Source: Patescibacteria group bacterium (GTDB lineage: Bacteria > Patescibacteriota > Minisyncoccia > Phycocordibacterales > PALSA-1337). Taken from it: DNA of 64,000 nt. Where the stretch lies: assembly GCA_038064415.1 (NCBI GenBank), contig JBBTTD010000001.1, positions 13,738 to 77,737 of the forward strand, given 5' to 3'. Under the pieces are notes generated by a model that worked only from the letters and a program-made list of their open reading frames with translations, was not told where the DNA came from and searched no databases. Each line of letters opens with the position of its first letter. Position 1 is the stretch's first letter. Both the position numbers and the translations under genes were made by a program. Positions 1 through 50,932 of the stretch are shown here, piece after piece.

Positions 1-2129
1 TTAGAGGTCTAGAAGATGGCATGGACAGACAGACTCTGTTGGGTGTAACCGGTTCCGGCAAGACATTTACTGTCGCAAATGTTATCGCCAATTATGGTAA
101 ACCAACTTTGGTTATTGCTCACAATAAAACCCTGGCCGCGCAATTAGCACAAGAATACAGAGAATTTTTTCCGGATAATGCCGTGCATTATTTTGTCTCT
201 TATTATGATTATTATCAGCCCGAAGCTTACATACCTTCAAGCGACACATACATTGAAAAAGAAGCGATGATTAATGAAGAGATTGAAAGATTGCGTCACG
301 CTTCAACGCAGGCACTCTTAACTCGCAAAGATGTGATTATTGTCGCGTCAGTTTCTTGTATTTATGGTTTAGGCAGTCCAGAAGAATACGAAAAAGTCAA
401 TTTAAAACTGAAAGTTGGCATGGAGATTTCGCGAGCTGAACTGATTCGCAAATTGGTTGATATTCATTTTGAGCGGACGACAGCTGATTTGAAGTCAGGT
501 CAATTTCGCGCTATCGGAAATACTATTGAAATTATGCCGGTAAACGAAAAGACGATTTATAGATTGGAATATGATGGTGGTTCTATTTCTTTAATTACCG
601 AACTTGATCCAATTTCTCGTTCTGTTCGTCGATCGAGTCAAGGTCCGACCTTCCGTCATCTTACGAAGTCCAATCTTGACTCAATCTATATTTTTCCAGC
701 AAAGCATTTCATTTCCAGCGATGAACAGGGCGAACGTGCTTACAAAACTATTCAAGCGGAACTCGCGGATCGCTTGAAAGTATTGGAAAAAGAGGGAAAA
801 TTGCTTGAAGCTGAACGACTGAAGCGTAGAGTTAAATACGATTTATCTATGATAAAAGAAATCGGCTACACAAATGGTATTGAGAATTATTCACGACATT
901 TTTCCGATAAAATGCCTGGCGAGCCACCAGATTCATTGCTTTCATATTTTCCACATAAAATAATTGGCACTGGTACAAATGCGCGGAATGTTCCTGATTT
1001 TTTGACTATTGTTGACGAATCGCACGTGACCATTCCTCAATTGAATGGTATGTATGCTGGCGATGCTTCACGCAAAAATACTTTGGTTGAGCACGGTTTT
1101 CGTCTACCTTCAGCCAAAGACAATCGCCCATTGAGATTTGATGAATTTTTAGAGCGAATTGGTCCGATGATTTACACTTCTGCCACGCCAGGAAAATATG
1201 AGGCAGAGACTAGTAATCAAGTAGTTGAACAGGTCATTCGTCCAACAGGATTGGTTGATCCGATTGTTGAAATTAGACCGATTAGGGAAAGTAAACGAGG
1301 AGTTGGTGCGTATTCTTATGAAGGACCGCAGTCTCTTGGCACAAAGCGTGAGGCAGTTATAACGGTCCCTCATAAGAATACGCACCAACTCCTCGTTTAC
1401 CATGGCCAAATCTTTGATTTTATCAATGAAGCGGAAAAAACTATTAAAAAAGGCGATCGAGTTTTGGCAACGACTTTAACTAAAAAAATGGCGGAGGATT
1501 TATCCGAATTCTTAAAAGAAAAAAATATTAAGTCCACTTATTTGCATAGTGACGTAAAAACCATTGAACGCATCAATATTTTGACGGACTTTCGCAAAGG
1601 GAGATATGATATTTTAGTTGGTGTCAATTTGTTGCGTGAGGGTCTGGATTTGCCCGAAGTTTCATTGATTGGAATATTGGACGCAGACAAAGAAGGATTT
1701 CTTCGATCTGAAACTTCACTTGTTCAAACTATTGGTCGTGCCGCGCGTAACTCCGCTGGTCGAGTCATTCTTTATGCCGATAATTTGACTGGTTCTATGG
1801 ATCGCGCGATCAAGGAGACCAATCGTCGTAGAGTTATTCAAGTAGCTTATAATGAAAAACATGGGATAACCCCAAAAACCATTAAAAAAGCGATTCATGA
1901 CATTACCGATCAATTACGCACTAAACACGATAAAGCTGTTGACGAATTGGTCAAAATTGATGAAGAATTGGCGCGTGTCAATCCAAAATTATTGATGAAG
2001 CAGAAACAGGATGCTATGGAAGAAGCCGTCAAACAATTGGATTTTGAGACTGCGGCGCTGATACGAGATGAATTGATAAAGCTTGAGAAAATCAAACAAT
2101 TAGATAGAAAGATGAAGGCTAGACCTTAA
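1..2129 (+). CDS. uvrB: Excinuclease ABC subunit B (UvrB), 5' end runs off the window start
   Basis: ORF 21..2129 translates to LLGVTGSGKTFT (Walker A), the helicase motifs and a C-terminal UvrB/UvrC interaction motif (ALIRDELIKLE). The frame stays open upstream of the first Met (codons for GLEDG), so the N-terminus is truncated by the window edge. Confidence 0.9.
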   Translation, partial: RGLEDGMDRQTLLGVTGSGKTFTVANVIANYGKPTLVIAHNKTLAAQLAQEYREFFPDNAVHYFVSYYDYYQPEAYIPSSDTYIEKEAMINEEIERLRHASTQALLTRKDVIIVASVSCIYGLGSPEEYEKVNLKLKVGMEISRAELIRKLVDIHFERTTADLKSGQFRAIGNTIEIMPVNEKTIYRLEYDGGSISLITELDPISRSVRRSSQGPTFRHLTKSNLDSIYIFPAKHFISSDEQGERAYKTIQAELADRLKVLEKEGKLLEAERLKRRVKYDLSMIKEIGYTNGIENYSRHFSDKMPGEPPDSLLSYFPHKIIGTGTNARNVPDFLTIVDESHVTIPQLNGMYAGDASRKNTLVEHGFRLPSAKDNRPLRFDEFLERIGPMIYTSATPGKYEAETSNQVVEQVIRPTGLVDPIVEIRPIRESKRGVGAYSYEGPQSLGTKREAVITVPHKNTHQLLVYHGQIFDFINEAEKTIKKGDRVLATTLTKKMAEDLSEFLKEKNIKSTYLHSDVKTIERINILTDFRKGRYDILVGVNLLREGLDLPEVSLIGILDADKEGFLRSETSLVQTIGRAARNSAGRVILYADNLTGSMDRAIKETNRRRVIQVAYNEKHGITPKTIKKAIHDITDQLRTKHDKAVDELVKIDEELARVNPKLLMKQKQDAMEEAVKQLDFETAALIRDELIKLEKIKQLDRKMKARP

Positions 2130-8446: not shown

Positions 8447-8498
8447 AACTTTTGTCTCCAGTTTGTTGTGAGTCAATTTTTCGGCAAATTCGGAATTG

Positions 8499-8571
8499 TG
8501 GACCCGAGCGGACTTGAACCGCTTGCCTCCTCATTGCAAATGAGGCGCTCTACCAGATGAGCTACGGGCCC
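8499..8571 (-). tRNA. tRNA-Ala (anticodon TGC)
   Basis: Reverse complement reads GGGCCCGTAGCTCATCTGGTAGAGCGCCTCATTTGCAATGAGG...GGTTCAAGTCCGCTCGGGTCCA. It has a cloverleaf, the G3:U70 Ala identity pair and anticodon loop tTTGCaa. CCA is not encoded. Confidence 0.85.
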
Positions 8572-10894: not shown

Positions 10895-10968
10895 TGGTGG
10901 ACCTACCGAGAATCGGACTCGGGTCTCGGCAATGCGAATGCCGCGTCGTACCACTAGACCATAGGTCC
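10895..10968 (-). tRNA. Atypical tRNA, anticodon CGC (nominally Ala) but without G3:U70
   Basis: Reverse complement reads GGACCTATGGTCTAGTGGTACGACGCGGCATTCGCATTGCCGAGACCCGAGTCCGATTCTCGGTAGGTCCACCA. The cloverleaf folds, with anticodon loop ttCGCat, a 4-nt variable loop, T-loop TCCGATT (C at position 55) and an encoded CCA. The acceptor 3:70 pair is A:U. Confidence 0.55.
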
Positions 10969-10991: not shown

Positions 10992-11067
10992 TGGTGGACC
11001 ATAGCGGACTTGAACCGCTTACCTCACCCATGCCATGGGTGCGCTCTACCAGATGAGCTAATGGCCC
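10992..11067 (-). tRNA. tRNA-Ala (anticodon GGC)
   Basis: Reverse complement reads GGGCCATTAGCTCATCTGGTAGAGCGCACCCATGGCATGGGTGAGG...GGTTCAAGTCCGCTATGGTCCACCA. It has G3:U70, anticodon loop atGGCat and an encoded CCA. Confidence 0.85.
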
Positions 11068-12746: not shown

Positions 12747-12756
12747 TTGATTTCAA

Positions 12757-12947
12757 TCAAGAAACAAAATAAGGTTGTAATTTTTCAAGCCGAGGACTGT
12801 TTGAGCGACTAGAAATTACTTGGTAAAAGGCGAATGGCGTTGGAATCACCAAAGCTTTGCTTTGTGTGATTCCTGAGCCGTTTACCTAGTAATTTCAGGA
12901 GCGAGTTCCGCAGGCTTGAAAAATTACAACCTTATTTTGTTTCTTGA
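12757..12947. repeat. 191-bp element with perfect 35-bp terminal inverted repeats and nested internal inverted repeats
   Basis: Left arm TCAAGAAACAAAATAAGGTTGTAATTTTTCAAGCC (12757-12791); right arm is its exact reverse complement (12913-12947). Additional internal inverted repeats (GGAATCAC...GTGATTCC; CTAGAAATTACTTGGTAAA / TTTACCTAGTAATTTCAGG) lie between them. It starts 10 nt after the zwf stop. Confidence 0.7.
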
Positions 12948-13117
12948 TAGTCGTTATCCACCCCTCAAACCCTTGCCTGTAACAAGGGTTTTATGTTATC
13001 CACAGTTTCATTTGCGTGCCTAAAATAGTAAAGTGGTATATAATATCCATCAAGTGGGAAGAAGTGGTAAATAATTTACTTATTAATACCTCTTAAATTT
13101 TCCCAGAATTTACAAAA

Positions 13118-20335: not shown

Positions 20336-20379
20336 CAAGGTCGGACCTTGGGTGATTTGGAGCTAAGGTCCGACCTTGA
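20336..20379. repeat. Palindromic element family 1: two AAGGTCGGACCTT-type units in inverted orientation
   Basis: CAAGGTCGGACCTTGGgtgatttggagCTAAGGTCCGACCTTG. The exact reverse complement of this 43-bp sequence recurs at 50806-50850. Confidence 0.8.
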
Positions 20380-32283: not shown

Positions 32284-32323
32284 AGCGAGGTCCGACCTTG
32301 ATATATTGAGGTCGGACCTCGCT
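32284..32323. repeat. Palindromic element family 1 (AGCGAGGTCCGACCTTGatatatTGAGGTCGGACCTCGCT)
   Basis: A perfect hairpin directly after the rpoB stop. It shares the GCGAGGTC(C/G)GACCTCGC core with 37762-37786. Confidence 0.8.
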
Positions 32324-32343: not shown

Positions 32344-32886
32344 ATGAATAAAAAAATTATTTTGGGGGTTATAATTATAGCGATATTAGTCGTTGCTGGT
32401 TGGTATCTATTCAAACCACGCCTTGCGTGTTGGCCATATTGTCCTAATATGACTAATCAGAATAGAGAGGAGATAAAACAATCGGCACTTGAAGTACAAA
32501 ATAATCAGATTAATAAGTCAAATAATTCTTTTTCTGTTCAAGATCTTGCTTATATTAATCAAAAATACGGATTTTCTCTTATTTTTCCAATTTCATGGAC
32601 AGATTATCAGGTTAATCAGAGAAATCAGGCAATGACAGAATTTGGGTTTTATGTCCCAGATGCCTTTCCAAAATTTCAAGCTCTATTTTATGTAGGTGTT
32701 ACTAAAGATGAACAAAGTTGTGAAGAATGGTCGAATCCTAAGACTGATGAGCCACACGATTATTGTATTATAAAAGTTGATGGAAATATCTATCATTATG
32801 GGAAAGCACAAGACATTATTCCAATACTTGACCGAAAATATCAAGATATTGATTTGATCATAAAAACATTTAAATTTATTAAATAA
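32344..32886 (+). CDS. Hypothetical membrane-anchored protein inserted between rpoB and rpoC
   Basis: 180 aa with an N-terminal TM helix and no recognisable domain. It lies in the normally tight rpoB-rpoC junction. Confidence 0.5.
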   Translation: MNKKIILGVIIIAILVVAGWYLFKPRLACWPYCPNMTNQNREEIKQSALEVQNNQINKSNNSFSVQDLAYINQKYGFSLIFPISWTDYQVNQRNQAMTEFGFYVPDAFPKFQALFYVGVTKDEQSCEEWSNPKTDEPHDYCIIKVDGNIYHYGKAQDIIPILDRKYQDIDLIIKTFKFIK

Positions 32887-32895
32887 ATTATCACC

Positions 32896-36564
<3,669 letters not shown>

Positions 36565-36567
36565 TGG

Positions 36568-36692
36568 CGAAGGAGGCAGAATGTGTGCAGATACTGATTA
36601 ACAAAAGGTTATCATGATATTAGTTAAACTACCACGTCGTCTAACTTCTTAGTTGTTAATCAGTATCTGCACACATTCTGCCTCCTTTGCTT
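36568..36692. repeat. 125-bp element with perfect 36-38 bp terminal inverted repeats and a 46-nt loop
   Basis: GCGAAGGAGGCAGAATGTGTGCAGATACTGATTAACAA ... TTGTTAATCAGTATCTGCACACATTCTGCCTCCTTTGC, beginning 4 nt after the rpoC stop. Confidence 0.75.
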
Positions 36693-36749
36693 AGTCGATT
36701 TTCAATATGTTTCCACTCCATTCTAACAGTGTGTTAGTATGTAAACACT

Positions 36750-37724
36750 ATGCGCAAGATAATTATTAAAGAAGGCCCCCTTGTCTTTCTTCGGAATGTC
36801 TTGTCTATGGAAATCATCGCCGCCCTATTCTTTTTTGGCTTGTCATTTATAAGTAATTATGGCCAATTGTACCAAAATTGGGGTTTTTCTGATTACATCA
36901 GATTTGACCTTTTTGAAATATTTATCTTTTCTGTCTTTCAGTTAGTATATATCTCACTTTTATTTTTTGATTGGTATTTTACCAACTATGAAATTAACGG
37001 AAAGGAGATAATCAAAAAATCAGGTTTACTATTTCGCCGTCGTAAAGCTGTAAGTTTGGCTGATGTAGCTTCAGTAGAAATAAACCAGTCGCCGATAAGT
37101 CGGATGATGTCTCATGCCACCATCATTCTTGAACACGCCAATGGTCATATGACAAAAATCAGAAATGTCTCTAATTTTGATGAATATATTTACCTAATCA
37201 AGAGTATGGTTCAAGAAGCTTCTGGACGGACCTTGACACAAGATCCGAAAGTTTTATTGGAAAAGGGCGAAGGATTTTTTATTGAATTTAAACAGACGCT
37301 TCGTTATGACGCGCGCAAAGGTGAAATTAGCAGGGAATTAGAGAAAATGGTTCTCAAAACGATTGTTGCCTTTCTGAACGCAGAAGGAGGTACTCTACTG
37401 ATTGGTGTAAATGATGATGCTGAAATTGTTGGTCTAGATAACGATTACAAAACACTGACCAAAAAAGATCGTGATGGGTTTGAGAATCATATGACTATGT
37501 TAGTAAAAACTCTGATTGGTTTGTCATTCACAAAATATGTCACGGTGCGGTTTGATTCAATTGACGGTAAAGATATTTGCATTGTGATAGTTAAAGAAGG
37601 TCACAAACCGGCGTATCTACACAATGGTGATAAAAAAGAAGACTTCTTTGTGCGAGTAGGGAACTCAACGCAACCTTTTTCTATGAGTGAGGCGGAGGAG
37701 TATATCAAGACGCATTGGAAATAA
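36750..37724 (+). CDS. Membrane bPH (YdbT/DUF304-like) domain fused to a Schlafen/AlbA_2 (PF04326-like) putative nucleic-acid-binding domain
   Basis: Two TM helices and a bacterial PH-like segment, then GEGFFIEFKQTL ... TIVAFLNAEGGTLLIGVNDDAEIVGLDND, the diagnostic AlbA_2/SLFN core. Confidence 0.5.
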   Translation: MRKIIIKEGPLVFLRNVLSMEIIAALFFFGLSFISNYGQLYQNWGFSDYIRFDLFEIFIFSVFQLVYISLLFFDWYFTNYEINGKEIIKKSGLLFRRRKAVSLADVASVEINQSPISRMMSHATIILEHANGHMTKIRNVSNFDEYIYLIKSMVQEASGRTLTQDPKVLLEKGEGFFIEFKQTLRYDARKGEISRELEKMVLKTIVAFLNAEGGTLLIGVNDDAEIVGLDNDYKTLTKKDRDGFENHMTMLVKTLIGLSFTKYVTVRFDSIDGKDICIVIVKEGHKPAYLHNGDKKEDFFVRVGNSTQPFSMSEAEEYIKTHWK

Positions 37725-37761
37725 ACTCTGATATTTGGCAAGGCCTACCCTTGTCTAAATT

Positions 37762-37786
37762 CTTAGCGAGGTCGGACCTCGCTAAG
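37762..37786. repeat. Palindromic element family 1 (CTTAGCGAGGTCGGACCTCGCTAAG, a perfect 25-bp palindrome)
   Basis: Sits between the convergent SLFN-like gene and typA; a partial extra copy CCGACCTCGC lies at 37805-37814. Confidence 0.8.
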
Positions 37787-39587
37787 ATATTAAATCCTTC
37801 CTTTCCGACCTCGCCCGATCTAATTCTGTCAAAAACTTTTTGCGTAGGCGAACACTTTTTGGAGTAATTTCCAAATATTCATCATCACGCATCAATTCCA
37901 GACCTCTTTCAATAGACAATTCAAATGGTGGTACCAGCATCAACGCCTCGTCTTTACCCGACGAACGCATATTACTCATAGCTTTACCTTTTGTTGGATT
38001 GACATCCATATCGTCGCCTTTGGCAGTATCACCAATAACCATACCTTCGTAAACTTCAACTGCTGGTCCTACGAAGAGGCGACCGCGATCTTGAAGATTC
38101 CAAAGTGAGAAGCCAAGAGTTTTGCCAGAAGTCATAGATGTCATTGAGCCGGTTTCGCGTTTTTCTATTTCGCCGACATGATTTTTAAATTCCGTAACTC
38201 GACTAGACATGATACCTTCACCTTTTGTGTCAATTGTAAATGCGTTACGATAACCCAAAAGACCGCGAGTTGGAATTTCAAAGACCATGCGTACTTGATT
38301 GCCATGAGCTTTCATGTCATTCATGATTCCTTTTCTTTTGCCTAGAGTTTCTATAATTGTCCCAGAATATTCTTGCGGACAATCAATGATCACTTCCTCA
38401 AAAGGTTCTAACATTTTGTCATTTTCTTCTTTAACAATGACTTTTGGCTGTGAGACTTGTAGTTCATATCCTTCGCGACGCATATTTTCTAGTAAAATAG
38501 CGATATGGAGCTCACCTCTGCCAAATACATTCAGGTATTCGTTTGAAGAAAAGTCAACTTTTAAACCGACATTTGTTTCTAATTCTTTGTGGAGCCGTTC
38601 ACGGATTTGTCGGCCAGTTACAAAAGTCCCTTCGCGTCCGGCGAAAGGTGAATTGTTAACTAAAAATTGCAGAGAAATCGTCGGTTCATCAACAGTAATG
38701 GCCGGAAGTGGCTGTGAGTTTTCATTATCGGTAATTGTCTCGCCAATATAAATGTTAGGAATACCAGCGACGGTAATAATATCACCAGATTCTGCTTGAT
38801 CAATTTCTACACGCTTTTTTCCTTCAAAAGTGAATAATTTAGTAATTTTACCTGTAAATGATTTGCCATTGATGTCTTTAACCCAGACACTTTGGCCATT
38901 TTTTATTATTCCATTATAAATACGGCAAATGGCGAGGCGACCAAGGAAATTGTCATAACTTAGATTAAATACTTGTGCTTGAAGTGAATTGTCAGTTATG
39001 CCGCTAAGACTTTTTTTATTTGCCGGTGGTACATGCTCAAGAATAGTATCCAAAAGTGGTGTCAGATCTTTGGAGTCGTCAATTAAAGATTTTTTCGCGA
39101 TTCCAGTTCGGCCAATAGCATAAATAGTAGGGAAATCAATCTGACTATCATGCGCGCCAAGTTCCATAAAAAGCTCTAGGACTTCGTCATGAACACGAAG
39201 CGGATTGGCTGCTGGTTTATCAATTTTGTTGATTATTACAATAGGTTTCAATCCTAATTCAAGTGATTTCTTCAAGACAAAGCGAGTCTGTGGCATAGGA
39301 CCTTCTTGGGCGTCTACGACTAAAAGAACAGTGTCAATTGAACGAAGAACGCGTTCAACTTCAGATCCGAAATCAGCATGGCCTGGAGTGTCCACAATGT
39401 TGATTTTGGTACCCTTATACATTATTGAGGTATTTTTAGCGTATATCGTAATACCGCGCTCCTGTTCGAGCGCGTTTGAGTCCATTGTACCTTCGTCACC
39501 ATGACCGCATTGGGCCATGATAGCGTCAGTCAGCGTAGTCTTCCCATGATCTACGTGAGCGATAATTGCAATATTACGAATCTCCAT
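37782..39587 (-). CDS. typA: Translational GTPase TypA/BipA
   Basis: MEIRNIAIIAHVDHGKTTLTDAIM, the DTPGHADF and NKID G motifs, and an EF-G-like domain series. The start is trimmed to the MEIRN Met. Confidence 0.85.
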   Translation of the reverse strand: MEIRNIAIIAHVDHGKTTLTDAIMAQCGHGDEGTMDSNALEQERGITIYAKNTSIMYKGTKINIVDTPGHADFGSEVERVLRSIDTVLLVVDAQEGPMPQTRFVLKKSLELGLKPIVIINKIDKPAANPLRVHDEVLELFMELGAHDSQIDFPTIYAIGRTGIAKKSLIDDSKDLTPLLDTILEHVPPANKKSLSGITDNSLQAQVFNLSYDNFLGRLAICRIYNGIIKNGQSVWVKDINGKSFTGKITKLFTFEGKKRVEIDQAESGDIITVAGIPNIYIGETITDNENSQPLPAITVDEPTISLQFLVNNSPFAGREGTFVTGRQIRERLHKELETNVGLKVDFSSNEYLNVFGRGELHIAILLENMRREGYELQVSQPKVIVKEENDKMLEPFEEVIIDCPQEYSGTIIETLGKRKGIMNDMKAHGNQVRMVFEIPTRGLLGYRNAFTIDTKGEGIMSSRVTEFKNHVGEIEKRETGSMTSMTSGKTLGFSLWNLQDRGRLFVGPAVEVYEGMVIGDTAKGDDMDVNPTKGKAMSNMRSSGKDEALMLVPPFELSIERGLELMRDDEYLEITPKSVRLRKKFLTELDRARSERKDLIS

Positions 39588-39634
39588 AGTTGAGCGTACA
39601 GAATACACTGTTTGGAGATTTTTGTCAAAAATAA

Positions 39635-39653
39635 GTGAGGGCCTGACCTTCAC
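39635..39653. repeat. Palindromic element family 2 (GTGAGGGCCTGACCTTCAC)
   Basis: The reverse complement differs from the 22584 copy at one position. Located in the typA 5' region. Confidence 0.7.
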
Positions 39654-39670
39654 TAAAATTTCGCCACAAA

Positions 39671-39703
39671 ACAAAATCTTGATCAAATCTTGATCAAATC
39701 TTT
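39671..39703. promoter_or_regulatory. Tandem 11-bp direct repeats (AAATCTTGATC x2.7) in the divergent typA / pilB intergenic region
   Basis: AAATCTTGATCAAATCTTGATCAAATCTTT; candidate regulator binding site. Confidence 0.4.
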
Positions 39704-39738
39704 ATTGTTTCTTGATTTCGGTCTGCTAGGGTATTTAC

Positions 39739-40875
39739 ATGAAACAAAAAGAACGAAATATTCGCCAAATAGTTGGAACACATGAAAAAAATAATCCAAC
39801 CGCGGTTGAGATAATTGACGACATTTTAGCGTATGCGGTAAAAATGAGGGCGTCGGATGTTCATTGTGATCCAAGGAAAGATGATACCCTAGTTCGTTTG
39901 AGAATTGACGGGCAAGTTGAACATGTCGGTATAATTTCCAAAAAAATTCATGAAGAAATGATATCTCGGTTGAAAATTTTATCTGGCGCGAGGACTGATA
40001 TTCACGCGATTCCTCAAGATGGTAGGTGGAGAGCTGACATTGATGATCAGACATTCCATATTCGGATCTCATTCATGCCGACCTATAATGGTGAAAACGC
40101 GGTTATGCGTCTCTTACCCACAGTTGTCTCTGAAGAAATTACTTTTGCCAAGCTTGGTTTTAATCCTGACCATGTTCGTTCTATCGCCACGACTTTGAAG
40201 AGAACCTCTGGTTTAGTTTTAGTTACTGGACCAACTGGCTCCGGAAAGACAACCACTCTTCATACTTGTTTGACGCTCAAATCACGAGAGTCATTATCTA
40301 TCATTACTCTAGAAGATCCAATTGAGTATGAGATTCCGTCAGTCCGTCAAGTTCATATTCATCACAATCATGGAGTTACATTTGCTTCAGGATTGCGTTC
40401 CGCTCTTCGCCAGGATCCTGATGTAATTATGGTTGGAGAGATTCGTGACACTGAAACCGCGCGAGTTGCGATTCACACGGCGCTAACGGGTCATTTGGTT
40501 TTATCAACGCTTCATACCAATTCAGCGCTTGAAGCCATTCCACGGCTTGTGGATATGGGCATTGATCACTATCTTTTGGCTTCAACCTTGAAGCTGGTCG
40601 TTGCCCAACGATTGGTTAGGGCAATTTGTCAAACTTGCTTTTTGTCCGGCTGTTCGGGATGCAGAAATAGTGGTTATCTTGGTCGATCTGTTATTGCTGA
40701 AGTCTGTGAAATTGATTCGGGAATGAAAAAGCTGATCACTGATAAAGAAAGCGTGTCTGCCTGTTTGGCCTATGCCAAAGTCCAATGTTTTCGGCCGATG
40801 GTTGAAGATGGCTATGAAAAGGTTGAATGGGGAATTACCACGAAAGAGGAGGTGATGAGAGTGTTATTTGAGTGA
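39739..40875 (+). CDS. Type IV pilus / type II secretion assembly ATPase (PilB/GspE family, compact)
   Basis: Walker A VLVTGPTGSGKTTTL, Asp box LRQDPDVIMVGEIRD, His box LSTLHTNSA and a C-terminal tetra-Cys motif (CQTCFLSGCSGC). Confidence 0.8.
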   Translation: MKQKERNIRQIVGTHEKNNPTAVEIIDDILAYAVKMRASDVHCDPRKDDTLVRLRIDGQVEHVGIISKKIHEEMISRLKILSGARTDIHAIPQDGRWRADIDDQTFHIRISFMPTYNGENAVMRLLPTVVSEEITFAKLGFNPDHVRSIATTLKRTSGLVLVTGPTGSGKTTTLHTCLTLKSRESLSIITLEDPIEYEIPSVRQVHIHHNHGVTFASGLRSALRQDPDVIMVGEIRDTETARVAIHTALTGHLVLSTLHTNSALEAIPRLVDMGIDHYLLASTLKLVVAQRLVRAICQTCFLSGCSGCRNSGYLGRSVIAEVCEIDSGMKKLITDKESVSACLAYAKVQCFRPMVEDGYEKVEWGITTKEEVMRVLFE

Positions 40876-40909
40876 GGTAGAAAGTTAAATATAAATCTGA
40901 TTAAAACAT

Positions 40910-41965
40910 ATGAAAATATTTCACAAAAAATGGAAGAGGCGCGATCTGATTTTATTATTGGAGCGTCTAGAATTATATATTTCTTCCGGTTTGACAATAG
41001 ACAAGGCGCTTGAAATTTTAGGACAGGGGATTTCCGAGCGACAAGCCACTTCATTGGCAAAAGTTCGAGCAAATGTCGTGGCGGGATCCCCATTGTCAAA
41101 GTCCTTCGCGACTCATTTAAATTTGTCTAGAACTCTTGTCGGACTGATAGAACATGGCGAATCATCTGGAGAGCTGGCGCGAACTATTCAGACCGCTAAA
41201 ACCTTACTTGAGAGAGAAGAAGAGTTATCAAAAAAATGCTTATCAGCATTGGCGTATCCAGTCATTATTGGAATCTTTTCTCTAATTTTAACTATTGGAT
41301 TAGTTCGTGGAGTTATGCCGCAAATTATTCCAATGTTGAAAAGTTTGCATGTTCAACTTCCATTATTAACTAGAGTGGTGATGTTCGTTTCTGAAAATCT
41401 TTTATCTTATGGACTCTATATTTTTCTAGGAATTATTACAATTTTCATCACAACTAGTTTTACCTATAAGAAATCCTCTTTATTTAAAGGATTTTGCCAT
41501 AATTTTCTGGCTCATATACCAATATTGGGTCAATTGTTTTATTCCTATTATTTATCACTATTTCTTCAATCCTGTGGCTCTCTTGTTGAATCGGGGTTGC
41601 GAATTGGATATTCATATTCCAATACCACGGCGACGGTGTCATTCATCCCTTTATCAAAATTATTGAATACCCAGATAGTAAATATTCACAGGGGAATTCC
41701 TTTAGGGTCATTGATGGCAAATAAATCCAATAAAATCCCACGTTATATCTCACCGCTTCTTTTAGCTGGTGAATCTTCCGGGACTCTTGGAAAATCATTG
41801 ATTCGCGTCGCATCCATACTAGATCGTGACATAGAACACTCATTAAAAAGAATGACTTCACTGATAGAGCCAGTAATGATGGCGGGAATGGGTTGCGTGG
41901 TTGGTGCCATAGCGCTTTCAATCATGATGCCGATTTATGATATTTCTAGAGTGCTTCAACATTAA
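40910..41965 (+). CDS. Type IV pilus / T2SS platform protein (PilC/GspF family)
   Basis: Two T2SS-F-like repeats with three TM segments; the position after the ATPase supports the call. Confidence 0.7.
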   Translation: MKIFHKKWKRRDLILLLERLELYISSGLTIDKALEILGQGISERQATSLAKVRANVVAGSPLSKSFATHLNLSRTLVGLIEHGESSGELARTIQTAKTLLEREEELSKKCLSALAYPVIIGIFSLILTIGLVRGVMPQIIPMLKSLHVQLPLLTRVVMFVSENLLSYGLYIFLGIITIFITTSFTYKKSSLFKGFCHNFLAHIPILGQLFYSYYLSLFLQSCGSLVESGLRIGYSYSNTTATVSFIPLSKLLNTQIVNIHRGIPLGSLMANKSNKIPRYISPLLLAGESSGTLGKSLIRVASILDRDIEHSLKRMTSLIEPVMMAGMGCVVGAIALSIMMPIYDISRVLQH

Positions 41966-42101
41966 TTAAAAAGTAATCAAAGATTAAAGACGAACTTAGT
42001 AAACATGAATTTCGTAGAAGTTATGTTGCTTCACCACATTATTTTCATTGAGGGTTCTGCATAACTTCTACAAAATTCATGTTTACTAAGTTCACGACAT
42101 A

Positions 42102-43652
42102 ATGTTCAAGATTCAAAATCATAAATCAGGTCTAATCTTGGTAGACATCATTCTGGCGCTTACTTTAGCGACTTTGTTTGTCGTAATTATCACACAATCA
42201 TCGCGTAATCTGAGGGATGTTTTTGAGTCAGCGCGTGAACGAAATCGTTTGCTTGATGTCTATGAACAGCATGCAAGTGAATTTGAAGACCTAATGCCTT
42301 ATGAATCTCGCGTGATTACTTTTGACGCTGATGGATGGAATACTTCAACCACGACGATTGGTGCCATCGCGCGTTGGTATGGCAATGATCGAATTCAAAC
42401 CGATGTGACGATTTCCACTGAATCACCGGGAACATTCGCTACTTCAACAACTGGTTATTCACGACATATTACTTTTGATGTCATCAGAAACTTTCCATTT
42501 ACGAACATCAATAATTTTGCCGGGACGCCATTATGTTCAGTTGATTTTACGAACAAAGAGGTTGTTGGTTCGTACTCATTTCAGCGCGATCTCAATTTAA
42601 TTAATACTTCAACATTTTTATCATTAAAATCTCCTCAATCTTTAGTTCCTACGATCACTCCAATTACTTTACCAGTCAATCCATTATTACCTCTGACTGA
42701 TATTGAAGCGCGAAATGGCGTGGTTTATATTTCAAGCGATTCTCCACTTGCTTCAGACCCAGACTTATTTATTATTGATATTAAAGATCCCAAACACGCG
42801 CAAATTATTTCTTCAATAAATACCGGACCGGGAATAGCAAGCATAACTTTGGCTGGTAACCGCGTATTCGCGGCGGCGGCAAGTACAGCGACCCAGTTGC
42901 ATGTTATTCGTCTTGATGGCTTAAATTTGCCAATCTTGGAAAAGAAATATCAATTGCCTTTACCATATGCCACAGCTACTCCACCTTTGGCTAGTTCAAT
43001 TTTTTATAATAAAAACCATGTTTTTCTTGGTACGACAAAATGGGACGACAATGAGTTCTCAATTATTGATGTGAGTAATCCAGCCGATCCGATTCAAATT
43101 GGCGGATTAGAAACTGGTAGTCAGATTAATGATATTTTTGTACGAAATCATATCGCTTATATTACTGATTCAGATCAACAACAATTGAGTGTTGTAAATA
43201 TTCATAATCTATCCAATCCGAGTTTCTTGGCGTCATTTAGTCCGTCTGGTTGGCAACGGCAGGAAGGGAAAGCCCTCTCGTTTTTTGAAGATAGCTTGAA
43301 TATGACTAGAACTTCCGGTGGATTTAACATCAGACAAGATCACGAGCTTTTTTCTTGGGCTACAACATCATTGGCTGAATTAAATTCTGGGATTGTGCCA
43401 AGTGATTCATTTGCGCCAAAATCAGTTGATATTTCCGGCGGAGCTTATGGTGTGGTAACTGATCGATCTTATATCTATGTAGCGACGCGCCAGCTAAATA
43501 AAGAGTTTCAAATATTTGACCAGAATTTATCTACGACGACGGCAAAAACTTTTTCGTTGCCAGCTTTGCCGCAAATAATGACTTGTGACGGAGATTATTT
43601 ATATATTTTAGCTAATAATGCGCCCGTGATTTATCAGATTTTATTTAAATAA
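42102..43652 (+). CDS. Large pseudopilin-like protein (N-terminal hydrophobic pilin-type helix, beta-rich body)
   Basis: N-terminus KSGLILVDIILALTLATLFVVI resembles a class III signal with Asp at +5; the rest is predicted beta-rich. Confidence 0.45.
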   Translation: MFKIQNHKSGLILVDIILALTLATLFVVIITQSSRNLRDVFESARERNRLLDVYEQHASEFEDLMPYESRVITFDADGWNTSTTTIGAIARWYGNDRIQTDVTISTESPGTFATSTTGYSRHITFDVIRNFPFTNINNFAGTPLCSVDFTNKEVVGSYSFQRDLNLINTSTFLSLKSPQSLVPTITPITLPVNPLLPLTDIEARNGVVYISSDSPLASDPDLFIIDIKDPKHAQIISSINTGPGIASITLAGNRVFAAAASTATQLHVIRLDGLNLPILEKKYQLPLPYATATPPLASSIFYNKNHVFLGTTKWDDNEFSIIDVSNPADPIQIGGLETGSQINDIFVRNHIAYITDSDQQQLSVVNIHNLSNPSFLASFSPSGWQRQEGKALSFFEDSLNMTRTSGGFNIRQDHELFSWATTSLAELNSGIVPSDSFAPKSVDISGGAYGVVTDRSYIYVATRQLNKEFQIFDQNLSTTTAKTFSLPALPQIMTCDGDYLYILANNAPVIYQILFK

Positions 43653-43656
43653 AACA

Positions 43657-43872
43657 ATGCATAACACGAATCCACGAATAAAAAACGCGAGAAAATTGGA
43701 CGAATCTTTTAGGTGTTTTAATTTCGTCGTGCGAGGTATGACTTTGATAGAAGTAATAATTTACACGGTTTTACTTTCTTTGTTGATAACCAATATGATC
43801 AATTATCTATATACAATGCATATTAACAACATTAAACTCATTAACGATGTTCAAGATTCTCAAAATCTATAA
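43657..43872 (+). CDS. Type IV prepilin (minor pilin), unusually long leader if the start is at 43657
   Basis: VRG|MTLIEVIIYTVLLSLL is a canonical prepilin peptidase site (G-M-T-L-I-E). An alternative TTG/GTG start nearer the cleavage site is possible. Confidence 0.6.
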   Translation: MHNTNPRIKNARKLDESFRCFNFVVRGMTLIEVIIYTVLLSLLITNMINYLYTMHINNIKLINDVQDSQNL

Positions 43873-44131
43873 ATCATGTCGTCGCCGAAGAATATATGGT
43901 TTTATTGCCACGACCGCCATCATTTTACTTTCAACAGGAAGTTTAGCATTTCTTGTTGCGACTTCATCTGCCGTTTTCATGTATGCCGATAGTATTGAAA
44001 AGAGGGAAATCAGAATTCAAAATAACCTTAATCAGCAAGCTTGCCAAGATACTCTACGAATAATGAATGCCAAGGATTATTTCTTAAATGTTGACATTCA
44101 ACTTAGTGATTTTGGATGTATAGCGAGGTGA
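43847..44131 (+). CDS. Hypothetical small membrane protein (possible minor pilin)
   Basis: Hydrophobic N-terminal helix plus a C-terminal Cys pair (QQACQD ... GC), reminiscent of a pilin D-region disulfide. Confidence 0.35.
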   Translation: MFKILKIYKSCRRRRIYGFIATTAIILLSTGSLAFLVATSSAVFMYADSIEKREIRIQNNLNQQACQDTLRIMNAKDYFLNVDIQLSDFGCIAR

Positions 44132-44139
44132 GACCTTGC

Positions 44140-44935
44140 TTATGAAATAAAAAAATGGCCCGGACATTCGCTTCATTGCTGAAACAAATGCCGGACCAGA
44201 TCGTGAGAGTCTCCATCATCGCTTGTAAGTATCGGAATTAATCCTGTCTTAGATTGAACTCCGTCTTAGACCTTCCGAGTTTAGCCTTGCGGTTTATTTC
44301 GTTAAGTCATCTTGCAATTGATTCTGGAATTCCTCTACCTTTTTTAGGGGCAGAAGGACATTGTGAGTTGGTGTCCTCACCGTGATTTTTCGCTTGCGCT
44401 ACTATTTCATGTCCTGGCGTGAACGAACTGATACGGTGTTCGCTTCGTCGGTCTATTGTTCTTTGTTCCCTCCACTGGCGATCTTACGATCGTTGTATGA
44501 AAGAATGTTCGGAACTCATTCTGGACTACCTAGTCCAGTGCATACCTAGTCATTGCTTCTTGATGATATTGATGCTTTTGAGGCACCAACATTCATTGGC
44601 ATGAGTACTTTTTACATTAGCACCCACTGAACTCTGTATGGGTTTTGCAACCTTTTTGACCTTGCGGTCATACAAGTAATGTTTAGTGTCATCAGTTGTT
44701 TTCGTATCTTACCTTAGTTGAATTTCTTCTTCTTTGGTTTGAAACTATACAATTGTAAACATTCTTTGTATTTTGGGCGCCTTTCTCTCTAGGCTCCCCG
44801 GTTTCACACCTTGACTTGATGTGAGACCGTAAACTTTTAAGGAACAACTCCACTTGGAGCGTGAAGAGGATGATACACCCACCAAGCAATCCTCGTCAAG
44901 CGTTTTTAAAATACAAATTATTTTAGGAATCTTGT
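44140..44935. other. About 800-bp ORF-free, GC-richer intergenic region with multiple local hairpins (candidate structured RNA or decayed gene)
   Basis: No ORF above about 60 aa with any recognisable product on either strand. Local hairpins include CTGGACTA-cc-TAGTCCAG, GGTTTCACA...TGTGAGACC and GACC-ttgc-GGTC. This gap is exceptional in an otherwise compact window. Confidence 0.4.
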
Positions 44936-45012
44936 CAAATTTTGGTATTTTAGGGATAAAAAAATGAGTAGCTAAACTTTGCTTTTTTGATTTTACACTG
45001 TAGACTTTCACT

Positions 45013-46122
45013 ATGTCACTCTCAATCGGCATCGTCGGTCTCCCAAATGTTGGAAAATCAACCTTATTCAACGCGCTCACAAAAAAGAGCGTCCTAGTGG
45101 CAAATTATCCATTTGCGACAATTGATCCATCGGTCGGTGTCGTGGCGGTCCCGGATGATCGACTCTGGAAGTTGAGTGAATTCTCAAAATCAGCTAAAAC
45201 TATTCCTGCCGTCGTGGAATTCGTAGACATTGCGGGTTTAGTCAAAGGCGCGTCTGTCGATGAGGGACTCGGTAATCAATTCCTTTCAAATATCCGTGAG
45301 ACTGACGCTATCGCCGAAGTGGTGAGGATTTTTGAGGATGACAACATTATCCATGTTGATGGTAAAATCAATCCACTCAAGGATATTGAAGTCATAAATT
45401 TAGAACTTATTTTGGCTGATTTGCAGACAGTTTCAAAAAGGAGCTCAAATCTTGGTAAAGAAGTTAAGGCTGGCAAAAAAGAGGCGATTATTGAACAGGG
45501 TTTGATTCAGAAGTTAAAAATCGCGCTTGAAACGGGAAAATTCGCTTCTACCGTCATAGCTGATGAATTTGAGAAACCTTTTTTGAAATCACTTCACCTT
45601 CTGACATCTAAACCATTTATGTATGTTTTGAACAAGAAATCGGGTGGCAAAAATTTAGATGAATTTCAAGGTCCGACCTTGGATGAAAGATATATCTCGC
45701 TGATGGCGTTTTTTAAAGAAGTCAATGCTTCATGGGTAATTGTTGATGCCGGGATTGAACAGGAGCTCAAAGATATTGATGATAAAGATAAAAAAGAACT
45801 TCGCGAAGGTCTTGGCGCGAATGATGACGGGATTAATAATTTGATCAAAAAAGGCCACGAGCTTTTAAATTTGATTACTTACTTCACGACCGGGGAAGAC
45901 GAAAGTCGTGCCTGGACGATTAAAAAAGGTTGGACCGCGCCTGAAGCTGGTACCGCAATTCATGGTGATTTTAAGGATAAATTTATCCGCGCGGAAGTTA
46001 TTGAGTGGGATAAATTACTTGTCGCTGGTTCATTTGGCGTGGCGCGTGAAAAAGGACTTCTCCGCACGGAGGGAAAAGAGTATGTGGTCAAAGATGGGGA
46101 TGTGATGGAGTTTAAGATTTAG
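45013..46122 (+). CDS. ychF: Ribosome-binding ATPase YchF (Obg family)
   Basis: IGIVGLPNVGKSTLFNALT, G-domain motifs and a C-terminal TGS domain. Confidence 0.85.
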   Translation: MSLSIGIVGLPNVGKSTLFNALTKKSVLVANYPFATIDPSVGVVAVPDDRLWKLSEFSKSAKTIPAVVEFVDIAGLVKGASVDEGLGNQFLSNIRETDAIAEVVRIFEDDNIIHVDGKINPLKDIEVINLELILADLQTVSKRSSNLGKEVKAGKKEAIIEQGLIQKLKIALETGKFASTVIADEFEKPFLKSLHLLTSKPFMYVLNKKSGGKNLDEFQGPTLDERYISLMAFFKEVNASWVIVDAGIEQELKDIDDKDKKELREGLGANDDGINNLIKKGHELLNLITYFTTGEDESRAWTIKKGWTAPEAGTAIHGDFKDKFIRAEVIEWDKLLVAGSFGVAREKGLLRTEGKEYVVKDGDVMEFKI

Positions 46123-46248
46123 GCAAAGAGAAAGGCGTTGCTATTGTATTATCAAGTTCGATATAATCTTGACTTTTGCCCCCAATCATGCCATCATTGT
46201 TTTGAAGCAATTTTGCACATTTGCAGTTAACCCTGTTCCTAAGAACAA

Positions 46249-46449
46249 ATGAAAGGCCACATGCTTACAATGTTAGTGACATTGTTGGTGATCGGACTCA
46301 AAGTATTGTTTGTACTTCTCGCGACAGTACTGTTAATATTCGGTTTTTTTGTTTTCCTGCTCCACCCCGTTTGGACGAAGGGCCTAAGGAATTCATTACC
46401 GTTTTTCCTGCTTGGTTTGGTTATTGCCTTTCTGCTTTTCAAGAAGTAG
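46249..46449 (+). CDS. Small two-TM membrane protein (66 aa)
   Basis: MKGHMLTMLVTLLVIGLKVLFVLLATVLLIFGFFVFLLHPVW...; a terminator follows. The overlapping alternative ORF 46221..46598 has no membrane or compositional support. Confidence 0.4.
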   Translation: MKGHMLTMLVTLLVIGLKVLFVLLATVLLIFGFFVFLLHPVWTKGLRNSLPFFLLGLVIAFLLFKK

Positions 46450-46480
46450 TAGGTATGACAAATCATCGTCAAATTTTACA

Positions 46481-46508
46481 AGCCGTTCCCACGAGGGACG
46501 GCTTTTTT
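46481..46508 (+). terminator. Rho-independent terminator
   Basis: AGCCGTTCCC-acgag-GGACGGCTTTTTT. Confidence 0.7.
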
Positions 46509-46530
46509 GATACTTATAACATTTTGAGTT

Positions 46531-49482: not shown

Positions 49483-49495
49483 GCCGTATAGTAGA

Positions 49496-49602
49496 CAAGA
49501 AAACAGTATGCGCATTTTATCTCAAGACAAGAGAGTCTTGTCTCGCGAGTCACATAACTACCATCTTTGGATTTGAGATAAAATGCGCATACTGTTTTCT
49601 TG
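49496..49602. repeat. 107-bp element with perfect 30-bp terminal inverted repeats and a 47-nt loop
   Basis: CAAGAAAACAGTATGCGCATTTTATCTCAA ... TTGAGATAAAATGCGCATACTGTTTTCTTG, starting 14 nt after the leuS stop. The loop contains an inner hairpin GACAAGA..TCTTGTC. Confidence 0.75.
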
Positions 49603-49755
49603 CTTAAAATACACTTTGTTTATATTTGACAACGATAAGACAATACTGTAGTGTATACCAATCAAGCCTGGGTGTGGGATTACGCACATTCCCACAAGAT
49701 TGACTTTGTTACAAGCTAGTGATACAAATATATAAATTATTTATTAGCAACTATT

Positions 49756-50793
49756 ATGGCAACATCAACAATCTCATTTAAACCCAAGCAGATCGTCAAA
49801 CGTCTTCTCGCTTCATTACCTGATCGCGCTCGTGAAGTTATCATATATCGTTATGGACTTGGTTCTGATACCAAGCGTATGACACTTGACGCAATTGGAA
49901 AGAAATATGGTATTACTCGCGAACGAGTTCGTCAGATAGAAAACTACGCGCTCGGAATTATCCGCAAATCTGACGAGTATCGGTTGGAAAAAGCAATTTT
50001 TGCTGAACTAGAGACCCTGCTTCATGCTTTGGGTGGAGTTGTCGTGGAAGATGATTTCCTTGGTCATGTCTCAAAGGACAAGAGTCTTCAAAATCATGTT
50101 CATTTTCTCTTAGTTATTGGTGAACCTTTCAAAAAAAGAAAAGAAGATGATGAGTTCAATCATCGTTGGCATGTCAATGAGGAACTTTCTACTCAAGTAG
50201 AAGATGCCCTACGCAAACTTTATAACAATCTTAATACGCAAGATCTTTTGCCTGAATCAGAGATTATCAACAAATTTCTTCAGCATTTAGAGAGTGTTTC
50301 TGAACGCTACAAGAATCAAGAGATTATGAAACGCTGGTTGGCATTATCTAAATCAATCGGAAAGAATGCTTTAGGAGATTGGGGTGCGGCAAATTCTTCA
50401 AATATCAAGACCAAGGGTATGCGTGATTATGCTTTTCTAGTTATCAGAAAACATGGTTCGCCGATCCATTTTCGTGATGTAGCCAAGCAGATTATGGCGA
50501 TGTTTAACAAGAAAGCTCATGTTGCCACGACTCACAATGAGTTGATTAAAGATCCTCGCTTCGTGCTAGTCGGTCGTGGTTTATATGCTTTGGCAGAATG
50601 GGGTTATGCGCCAGGAATTGTACGAGATGTTATACGACTTGTTATACAGAAAAATGGTCCAATGACCAAAAATGAGATAATCTCTAAAGTCCTGAAGGAA
50701 CGCTATGTTAAGGAAAACACCATTGCGGTAAATCTCCAAAACCCGAAGTATTTCAAAAAAGACAAGGATGGTAAGTATTCGGTGGTTGCGTAA
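49756..50793 (+). CDS. Sigma-70 region-4 HTH fused to HARE-HTH-like domain(s)
   Basis: N-terminus VIIYRYGLGSDTKRMTLDAIGKKYGITRERVRQIENYALGIIRK matches sigma-70 region 4.1/4.2. The C-terminus (FRDVAKQI ... DPRFVLVGRGLYALAEWGY) matches the HARE-HTH fold of the RNAP delta subunit. Confidence 0.5.
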   Translation: MATSTISFKPKQIVKRLLASLPDRAREVIIYRYGLGSDTKRMTLDAIGKKYGITRERVRQIENYALGIIRKSDEYRLEKAIFAELETLLHALGGVVVEDDFLGHVSKDKSLQNHVHFLLVIGEPFKKRKEDDEFNHRWHVNEELSTQVEDALRKLYNNLNTQDLLPESEIINKFLQHLESVSERYKNQEIMKRWLALSKSIGKNALGDWGAANSSNIKTKGMRDYAFLVIRKHGSPIHFRDVAKQIMAMFNKKAHVATTHNELIKDPRFVLVGRGLYALAEWGYAPGIVRDVIRLVIQKNGPMTKNEIISKVLKERYVKENTIAVNLQNPKYFKKDKDGKYSVVA

Positions 50794-50805
50794 GAAATAA
50801 AAAAA

Positions 50806-50850
50806 CCAAGGTCGGACCTTAGCTCCAAATCACCCAAGGTCCGACCTTGG
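50806..50850. repeat. Palindromic element family 1 (exact reverse complement of the 20336-20379 copy), flanked by an A-run and a T-run
   Basis: AAAAAACCAAGGTCGGACCTTagctccaaatcaccCAAGGTCCGACCTTGGTTTTTTT has the shape of a bidirectional terminator. Confidence 0.8.
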
Positions 50851-50932
50851 TTTTTTTAAATAGTCCTCGGCAATAAAAACATGTGTGCACTATTATTGTT
50901 TTTGGTTAAGCTGTTCATGTTATAATAGTGGC

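Follow-up and report, generated by a model that had tools for sequence, protein, structure and literature searches.

What are the long inverted repeats that appear to stand just downstream of zwf, rpoC, and leuS in a groundwater member of the Patescibacteria, or Candidate Phyla Radiation (CPR), and how did they come to be there? The stretch of DNA analyzed here (the window, 64,000 nt of contig JBBTTD010000001.1) belongs to a metagenome-assembled genome (MAG) from a 0.1-μm-filter metagenome of Hainich aquifer groundwater. Its host is a member of the Paceibacteria near Taylorbacteria; the homologs of its UvrB, LeuS, and RpoC are all from Patescibacteria, and the closest other species is ~82% identical in UvrB. 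Other sequences compared with the window are designated by L numbers. [quoted passage not shown] Only the last of these is supported by the evidence. In our judgment the elements are probably small, non-coding, hairpin-forming insertions, i.e., palindromic selfish DNA similar to MITEs and Rickettsia palindromic elements (RPEs), that spread in a groundwater lineage of Paceibacteria.

The three repeats were found where the earlier note had placed them, with ends offset by 1–3 nt, but its count was incomplete: the window holds two more elements of like architecture. In 10 dinucleotide-preserving shuffles of the window, perfect arms grew no longer than 12–15 nt, and none reached 16 nt or more. Arm lengths in the window itself are bimodal, with ordinary hairpins of up to 23 nt and a separate five-member group at 30–37 nt. 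The zwf-type (Z) element, at 12756–12948 on the forward strand, has perfect 36-nt arms (12756–12791 and 12913–12948) separated by 121 nt, within which further inverted repeats are nested as the earlier note had described, forming a middle stem (12810–12827 with 12881–12898) and an apical stem (12842–12849 with 12866–12873). Its conserved, asymmetric core (12792–12912, forward strand) carries the 5′ motif TGTTTGAGCGACTAGAAATT at 12798–12817 and the 3′ motif AGCGAGTTCCGCAG at 12900–12913, the final base of which is also the first base of the right arm. The rpoC-type (R) element (36567–36690, forward strand) has 38-nt arms (36567–36604 and 36653–36690) with one G·T mismatch and a 48-nt loop; the perfect part of the arms is 35 nt long (36570–36604 and 36653–36687). 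The leuS element (49496–49602, forward strand) has perfect 30-nt arms (49496–49525 and 49573–49602) around a 47-nt loop, with imperfect pairing reaching out to 49486–49612. These three begin 9, 2, and 13 nt, respectively, after the upstream stop codon. The two additional elements are a uvrB-type (U) element at 1291–1400 (forward strand), with 38-nt arms, one mismatch, and a 34-nt loop, which lies in frame within uvrB, and a fifth (pilC) element at 41992–42093 (no strand assigned), with 34-nt arms, one mismatch, and a 34-nt loop, which occupies most of the 136-nt spacer between a T2SSF/PilC-like gene and a pilin-like open reading frame (ORF). Element sizes in the window range from 102 to 193 bp, at a density of about one per 12 kb in the genome. 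A sixth element, seen in this species at L144:1674–1800, is ~8 kb upstream of where the window begins and is flanked by genes for a histidine kinase and a Peptidase_S24 protein; its 49-nt arms are 86% complementary, ~30 nt of them near-perfectly so, and no homolog of it was found.

The zwf element has the same sequence in another retrieval of the contig, and Logan unitigs from other runs break off in its left arm after ~30 nt, the unavoidable result of k = 31 graphs. The loop and right arm of the rpoC element are present in unitigs of three further runs, and the uvrB element recurs unchanged in L144, another assembly from this species. Long perfect palindromes are a known class of assembly or amplification artifact, produced from chimeric fold-back reads, but here several independent assemblies and runs yield identical sequences, proteins called from several contigs contain the uvrB insert, and the flanks are collinear with those of relatives. 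Because the same sequences recur in independent assemblies and in the Logan unitigs of other runs, we conclude that the elements are not assembly artifacts, and the chance that they are is negligible.

Three of the five window elements (Z, R, and U) belong to dispersed families whose homologous centers lie at unrelated loci. Within the window the earlier note was right that arm sequences differ, but it misses the central parts, which have homologs in other contigs. Long repeats on other contigs of Paceibacteria have interiors homologous to the Z core; one metagenome scan with the Z 5′ motif gave 46 matches, 11 of which were real copies as judged by the 3′ motif and flanking arms. We aligned 11 Z copies (that of the window plus 10 others), located on at least seven contigs. 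The core of the window copy is identical to that of L105 at 117 of 121 positions and to that of L093 at 113 of 121, while the outer arms are unrelated in both comparisons. The genomic contexts of Z copies also differ: zwf|mraZ, rpe|tkt, helicase|unknown, divergent gene starts, and convergent stops. Three copies, with arms all different, sit on three contigs of one sample with an equal coverage of 19×, and these probably belong to one genome. The R-type homolog, L109:2147–2268, has 37-nt perfect arms and a 48-nt loop. It matches the window copy at 26 of the inner 27 nt of the arms (with one compensated G–C to A–T change) and at 36 of 48 loop positions; the outer 10–11 nt are unrelated between the two and G+C-rich in both. 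The loop and inner arms of the U type recur at L105:5668–5775, in an intergenic spacer. The description of a MITE as small, non-coding, and dispersed thus fits 11 Z, two R, and two U copies, which lie at unrelated loci.

Beyond these three families, nothing among the five window elements, or among all arms, was similar above the shuffled null. The start CAAGAAA(A)CA that the earlier note saw as common to the zwf and leuS elements did not stand out, since arm-versus-arm comparisons of unrelated elements never exceeded that null. The shared octamer AACTACCA is conserved within the rpoC-type family; its presence in the leuS loop is at about chance level by a rough estimate. The same arm comparisons gave no support to nested insertion, in which one family's arms would have become the outer arms of another. 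A phage origin was also considered and set aside, as the Z motif has a single match in IMG/VR, which is in coding sequence and due to chance. Elsewhere, a further family with 41–48-nt arms and 80–265-nt interiors was observed at L116:760–1130 and L017:8930–9290. L116 contains half a Z-type core flanked by a ~35-nt direct repeat, an arrangement that suggests rearrangement or recombination between elements.

The elements are insertions relative to related genomes. Comparisons with empty sites cover the rpoC, leuS, and uvrB elements of the window as well as the uvrA 3′ end, where L085 was compared with L078. A conserved function in termination or processing, as the earlier note had entertained, is contradicted by relatives that are without any such element after rpoC or leuS. 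In L138 the rpoC stop codon is followed after 21 nt by the start of dnaG, and in L139 by an ordinary terminator (10-bp stem, T-run); a long repeat is missing from both. Gene order from leuS to a sigma-like gene is preserved in L136 and L137, where the spacer measures 104 nt and holds no repeat. The conservation of position at gene ends expected of terminators is thus missing in all four. The spacer at the uvrA 3′ end measures 0–18 nt in most relatives, whereas that of L085 is 119 nt long and holds a 100-bp repeat; taking this repeat out of L085, both arms with it, restores the 18-nt uvrA–uvrC spacer of L078, a relative that is 83% identical.

At leuS, a relic of the ancestral 3′ end of the gene lies beyond the element at 49610–49651 (forward strand). 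It comprises the last ~14 codons and a TAG stop at 49649–49651, now non-coding and frameshifted. Its alignment is to the final 42 nt of the L136 and L137 leuS genes, stop codons in register, and the similarity runs on into a strongly conserved leader. The LeuS of the window ends in PNKLVNFVIK, versus PNKLVNIVLVDNNLAVR in L136 and L137. Given the displaced relic with its TAG in register, we conclude that the element hit the ancestral coding end, created a new stop codon, and frameshifted the old end. It is therefore misleading to describe this element as placed immediately after leuS; it sits within the ancestral 3′ end of the gene. The earlier note's statement that target-site duplications are absent holds for most copies, but a possible, diverged duplication of ~15 bp flanks the leuS element, with a left copy at 49462–49476 (forward strand; GTCAATTTTGTCATA) and a right copy at 49610–49624 (TACACTTTGTTTATA). 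Both resemble GTAAACATTGTATTA of the relatives. The case is weak: by eye the left and right copies have ~10 of 15 bases in common, and the ~95-nt flanks around them, when aligned locally with each other, did not rise above shuffles.

These comparisons also bear on the idea that the palindromes grew locally, without mobility, from small pre-existing hairpins such as terminators, with template switching as the means of extension. In its favor, arms can be lengthened by this process (PMC8604942), each copy has outer stems of its own (in both R-type copies short, G+C-rich, and terminator-like), and elements often fill the whole spacer. However, homologous cores at non-homologous loci require dispersal, the comparison of empty with filled sites identifies the whole repeat as extra DNA, and at leuS and uvrB more than 100 bp have clearly been inserted, neither arm of which is in the ancestral sequence. 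Local growth is refuted as the sole origin, and we consider such an account very improbable; it may have been a source of the outer stems.

The uvrB element provides a second case of insertion into coding DNA. Read in frame, it adds 39 residues (SKRGVGAYSYEGPQSLGTKREAVITVPHKNTHQLLVYH), and the UvrB linker is 38 residues long in the window vs. 5 in most relatives. Solved UvrB structures have the residues on either side of the insert, 428 and 429, contiguous with each other. The element thus resembles an RPE in being a palindrome in frame in a protein gene at a structurally tolerant site. The same linker site holds hairpin-forming inserts of several families in many relatives, and one of these families has the core hairpin AATTTTCTGNTGAAAATT in common with intergenic elements. 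Across Paceibacteria, linker length ranges from 5 to more than 100 residues, making this one position a hot spot (1290–1403 in the window; loci L007, L009, L010, L013, L014, L016, L035, L056, L061, L086, L087, and L088). Most of the inserts of at least 25 residues for which DNA was examined fold as long hairpins. Some encode peptides, such as PAKAGIQ and RFRGND, that are typical of translated palindromic repeats.

A pair of these inserts records a change of orientation. The L009 insert matches that of L087 at 96 of 109 positions as its reverse complement, compared with 70 of 114 in direct orientation, and the outer arm segments of the two show two compensated differences. Because the asymmetric tail TTCCTTA keeps its side in both, the interior was inverted in place rather than inserted a second time; independent insertions in opposite orientation are ruled out by the same tail.

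The families share a pattern of evolution in which the center is conserved and the outermost 10–25 nt of both arms are copy-specific yet complementary. Between close copies the inner 11–27 nt of the arms are kept, and the true termini are specific to each copy. In the zwf element, the inner 11–14 nt of the arms are homologous to other copies and the outer ~22 nt are unique; breakpoints of arm homology are nested, with ~14 nt shared by the window and L093 and ~21 nt by L093 and L105. Over the 63 predicted pairs of the 11 aligned Z copies, 89.1% of cells are paired vs. 69.7% in shuffles, and double-change cells number 143 vs. 47.6 expected (none of 500 shuffles reached the observed values). Controls in which partners were slid gave 35–50% paired. 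The pair cells comprise 590 Watson–Crick, 16 G·T, and 11 A·C combinations, and the core is oriented in sense with the adjacent gene in four cases and antisense in four. Since G·T and A·C are about equally frequent (16 vs. 11), neither strand is favored, and the wobble intermediates of RNA covariation are rare. The 4:4 orientation and the near parity of G·T and A·C point to a palindrome maintained at the DNA level, and strand-specific RNA selection was rejected on the same two counts. The earlier note had attributed perfect arms to recent origin or to selection on a double-stranded structure; homogenization at the DNA level is probably the better explanation.

The same data weigh on a reading of the Z core as a structured non-coding RNA gene with the long stems as its closing helix. 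Conserved unpaired motifs beside covarying helices of variable length are indeed found in many structured RNAs, but there is no match to any Rfam family even at permissive thresholds, orientation relative to flanking genes is evenly split, and the double Watson–Crick substitutions, with G·T about as frequent as A·C, reveal no strand asymmetry. Several copies per genome occur at unrelated sites, and cores 93–97% identical stand beside wholly unrelated outer stems, a sign of separate events in the DNA and not of gradual drift with selection on an RNA. We regard an RNA gene as highly unlikely. In a search against Rfam 15, only tRNAs passed; the elements gave just sub-threshold matches to hairpins resembling miRNA precursors. 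The small structured RNAs proposed in the earlier note are accordingly disfavored, given the lack of an Rfam match, the equal orientations, and the absence of a bias of G–U over A–C.

The note's remark that the stems are atypical for intrinsic terminators was borne out: they are 30–38 bp long, with loops of 34–121 nt and an arm G+C content of 0.28–0.47, and no T-run follows any of the five. Intrinsic terminators have a short G+C-rich stem of ~5–12 bp, a 3–8-nt loop, and a T/U tract 3′ of the stem. A terminator scan of 36000–51000 returned canonical examples (e.g., 46480–46504 and 50834–50850) and none at the elements. More broadly, the repeats might be functional RNA structures that evolved in place at 3′ ends (terminators, RNase III sites, or stabilizing hairpins) under selection for double-stranded RNA. 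About 20 of 25 intergenic elements begin no more than 26 nt from a stop codon, folding energies are extreme (z about −14 to −16), and such hairpins affect mRNA fate in other bacteria (PMC10969869). Set against this are the relatives without such a structure after rpoC or leuS, the coding end broken by the leuS copy, the copy inside uvrB and another (L105) between divergent gene starts, and the recurrence of the same cores at unrelated loci. Moreover, no T-tract follows any element even though the genome has canonical terminators, orientations are equal, and G–U pairs are almost absent, with G·T not in excess of A·C. As an origin, in-place RNA function is largely refuted, and we give it little credence.

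How, then, might inserted palindromes have acquired arms that are perfect and yet differ from copy to copy? Template switching between inverted-repeat arms is known to homogenize arms, extend them, and invert the spacer (PMC8604942). This quasipalindrome mutagenesis predicts three features seen here, namely perfect arms, arm extension, and spacer inversion, although it has been described for arms of 5–16 bp with spacers of a few bp, whereas the arms here are 30–38 bp and the spacers 34–121 bp, and the process is one that we infer. We propose that the arms would be repeatedly copied from each other in DNA, by intramolecular or intermolecular template switching or by arm-to-arm gene conversion. 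Such copying would keep the arms perfect and flip the interior. Template switching may also account for lengthened or replaced outer stems, while an origin of arms from the flank was not seen at empty sites. Outer arms copied from the flank or taken from a pre-existing target palindrome are unsupported at the L078–L085, leuS, and uvrB empty sites; in the R type, where the outer stems are short and G+C-rich, they may have had such a source. We also rejected "transduction" of a donor flank by self-primed synthesis, under which all progeny would share arms; no outer arm matched another flank.

Because the leuS and uvrB copies hit coding DNA, insertion itself is not confined to spacers. The accumulation of elements just after stop codons would instead be a survival filter, as a compact genome may tolerate 100–200 extra bp there, its spacers being otherwise taken up by promoters and start signals. 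Downstream of the zwf element lies a terminator-like hairpin at 12967–12991 (forward strand; AAACCCTTG-cctgtaa-CAAGGGTTT, with a T-rich tail after it), which from its sequence is likely the true end of the zwf transcript. Because this hairpin follows the element, the elements are probably co-transcribed, as 30–38-bp hairpins in 3′ untranslated regions. Transcription of the Correia elements of Neisseria and the ERIC elements of enterobacteria gives long hairpins, which can be RNase III substrates or change how stable the mRNA is (PMC10969869). By analogy, the hairpins here may incidentally stabilize mRNA or expose it to RNase III.

Among known kinds of element, RPEs are similar in several respects: they are ~100–150-bp hairpin-forming palindromes of several families, with no known transposase, in a small genome, and they occur both in intergenic DNA and in frame in housekeeping genes, where their positions suit the fold of the protein (PMC10969869). 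The likeness is one of description, and the elements differ from RPEs, which are alphaproteobacterial, in their CPR host, near-perfect 30–38-nt arms, copy-specific outer stems, and in that one of five window copies is intragenic. Correia/NEMIS and ERIC MITEs are likewise small non-autonomous inverted-repeat elements at gene ends (PMC10969869), but their copies share terminal inverted repeats, with TA duplications in Correia, whereas here the termini differ and no consistent duplication is seen. Other comparisons are more distant. Like REP/REPIN elements and the palindrome-targeting insertion sequences of the IS1397 type, the elements are palindromic extragenic repeats in compact intergenic DNA. 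Nested palindromes can arise by landing in a hairpin loop, and such landing would account for outer stems as short and G+C-rich as those of the R type. REP/REPIN sequences, however, are units of 20–40 bp repeated many times, and the arms of the five long elements are mutually unrelated; the elements are long and without a conserved REP head, no RAYT gene was seen in the window, and empty sites hold no pre-existing palindrome. The intervening sequences (IVS) of 23S rRNA are sporadic stem-loops of ~100–200 nt and unrelated sequence at fixed tolerant sites, excised by RNase III, a pattern like that of the UvrB linker hot spot; but IVS lie in rRNA, whereas the present elements are found in intergenic or mRNA-coding DNA, and translation has to pass through the uvrB copy. 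Integron attC sites were rejected, as the element ends do not fit RYYYAAC ... GTTRRRY, the flanks are housekeeping genes in conserved synteny, and no integrase lies in the window.

Several observations weigh against the view of the elements as MITE- or RPE-like selfish DNA. No mobilizing gene was found among the ~45 ORFs of the window, and no autonomous relative was found. When these ORFs were scanned for Pfam families, every one with a match was a housekeeping gene, several had no match, and no transposase, recombinase, or reverse transcriptase domain (nor, in the window, any integrase) was among them. There are no consistent target-site duplications at L085/L078 or other junctions, only the doubtful one at leuS. 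The Z type conserves its center rather than its termini, whereas classical MITEs do the reverse. At the three informative empty sites (L085, leuS, and uvrB) the flank is the source of neither arm, because of which outward growth by flank copying is not demonstrated. No homolog of the leuS or pilC element was found in the ~2 Mb of related sequence that the search covered, and it is by architecture that these two are assigned to such families. L105, L093, L094, and L109 may be of the window's own species, judging only by shared site and coverage.

A bolder and rather doubtful alternative is that the elements form a new class of CPR hairpin mobile element recognized as folded single-stranded DNA through the asymmetric core, not the termini. 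By analogy, such recognition may resemble that of attC sites, IS200/IS605 ends, or the attP of CTX phage. The copy-specific outer stems may in that case be made at or after each insertion, and a candidate HUH-, Xer-, or integrase-like enzyme may move the hairpins into 3′ ends and protein linkers. The MITE- or RPE-like account with arm-to-arm copying remains the one we prefer.

Other features of the window were noted in passing. A separate repeat, the palindrome GGTCSGACC, occurs 10 times vs. 0.12 expected and is unrelated to the long elements; its sites are at 20336–20378, 50806–50850, and 32284–32323, with single sites at 642, 2999, 37770, and 45670. Two 43-bp inverted doublets (CAAGGTCGGACCTT-15 nt-AAGGTCCGACCTTG) are mutually reverse complementary and lie at the ends of genes, accompanied by A/T runs; in appearance they are bidirectional terminators or units of a REPIN-like kind. 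In L011, rpe is followed by a similar GAGGTCCGACCTC. A doublet also precedes a 180-residue ORF without a Pfam match at 32344–32886, between rpoB and rpoC; RpoC itself appears complete at 1222 residues. The leader downstream of the leuS relic (49652–49755), upstream of a Sigma70_r4/HARE-HTH gene, is apparently more conserved relative to L136 and L137 than the adjacent coding DNA. It holds a hairpin (GGGTGTGGGAT...ATTCCCAC), had no Rfam match in the whole-window scan, and could be a promoter/operator or an RNA leader. In the divergent promoter region between bipA and a T2SSE ATPase gene (39687–39738), a conserved sequence of ~55 nt contains tandem GATTTGATCAA units (GAAATCAAGAAAYAATAAAGATTTGATCAAGATTTGATCAAGATT) and recurs upstream of two genes in L109 (7065–7130 and 7656–7735); it may be an operator or promoter module. 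Three tRNA-Ala genes with anticodons TGC, CGC, and GGC lie on the minus strand within 2.6 kb (8498–8571, 10895–10968, and 10992–11067). The LeuS gene (46531–49482) encodes an alpha/beta-hydrolase (Ser_hydrolase) domain embedded at residues ~277–440, just before the editing domain. LeuRS homologs in other Paceibacteria have a NUDIX or HAD domain in its place, or none, which suggests a swappable accessory domain within an aminoacyl-tRNA synthetase.

We found no description of palindromic or MITE-like elements in Patescibacteria in the literature searched, and a 2024 review of prokaryotic MITEs makes no mention of the group (PMC10969869). What is unusual here is the combination of a conserved core with copy-specific, perfectly paired outer stems in a streamlined CPR genome. 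Genomes of CPR bacteria are ~1 Mb and are regarded as streamlined, yet this one carries about one palindromic insertion of 100–200 bp per 12 kb, some of them beside or inside essential genes. There are practical consequences as well: the elements break short-read assemblies at their loci, inflate or truncate gene calls (UvrB proteins of 651–802 residues, a shortened LeuS), and could be mis-annotated as terminators or small RNAs. For the biology of the lineage, the families amount to a natural experiment in how long, perfect palindromes are tolerated, homogenized, extended, and flipped with reduced repair machinery, and their architecture of conserved core and variable stem hints at a mode of mobilization unlike the classical recognition of terminal repeats. 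If recognition of the core as folded DNA is true, the elements would be a significant source of protein-length variation, as in the UvrB linker and the LeuS C-terminus, in streamlined genomes.

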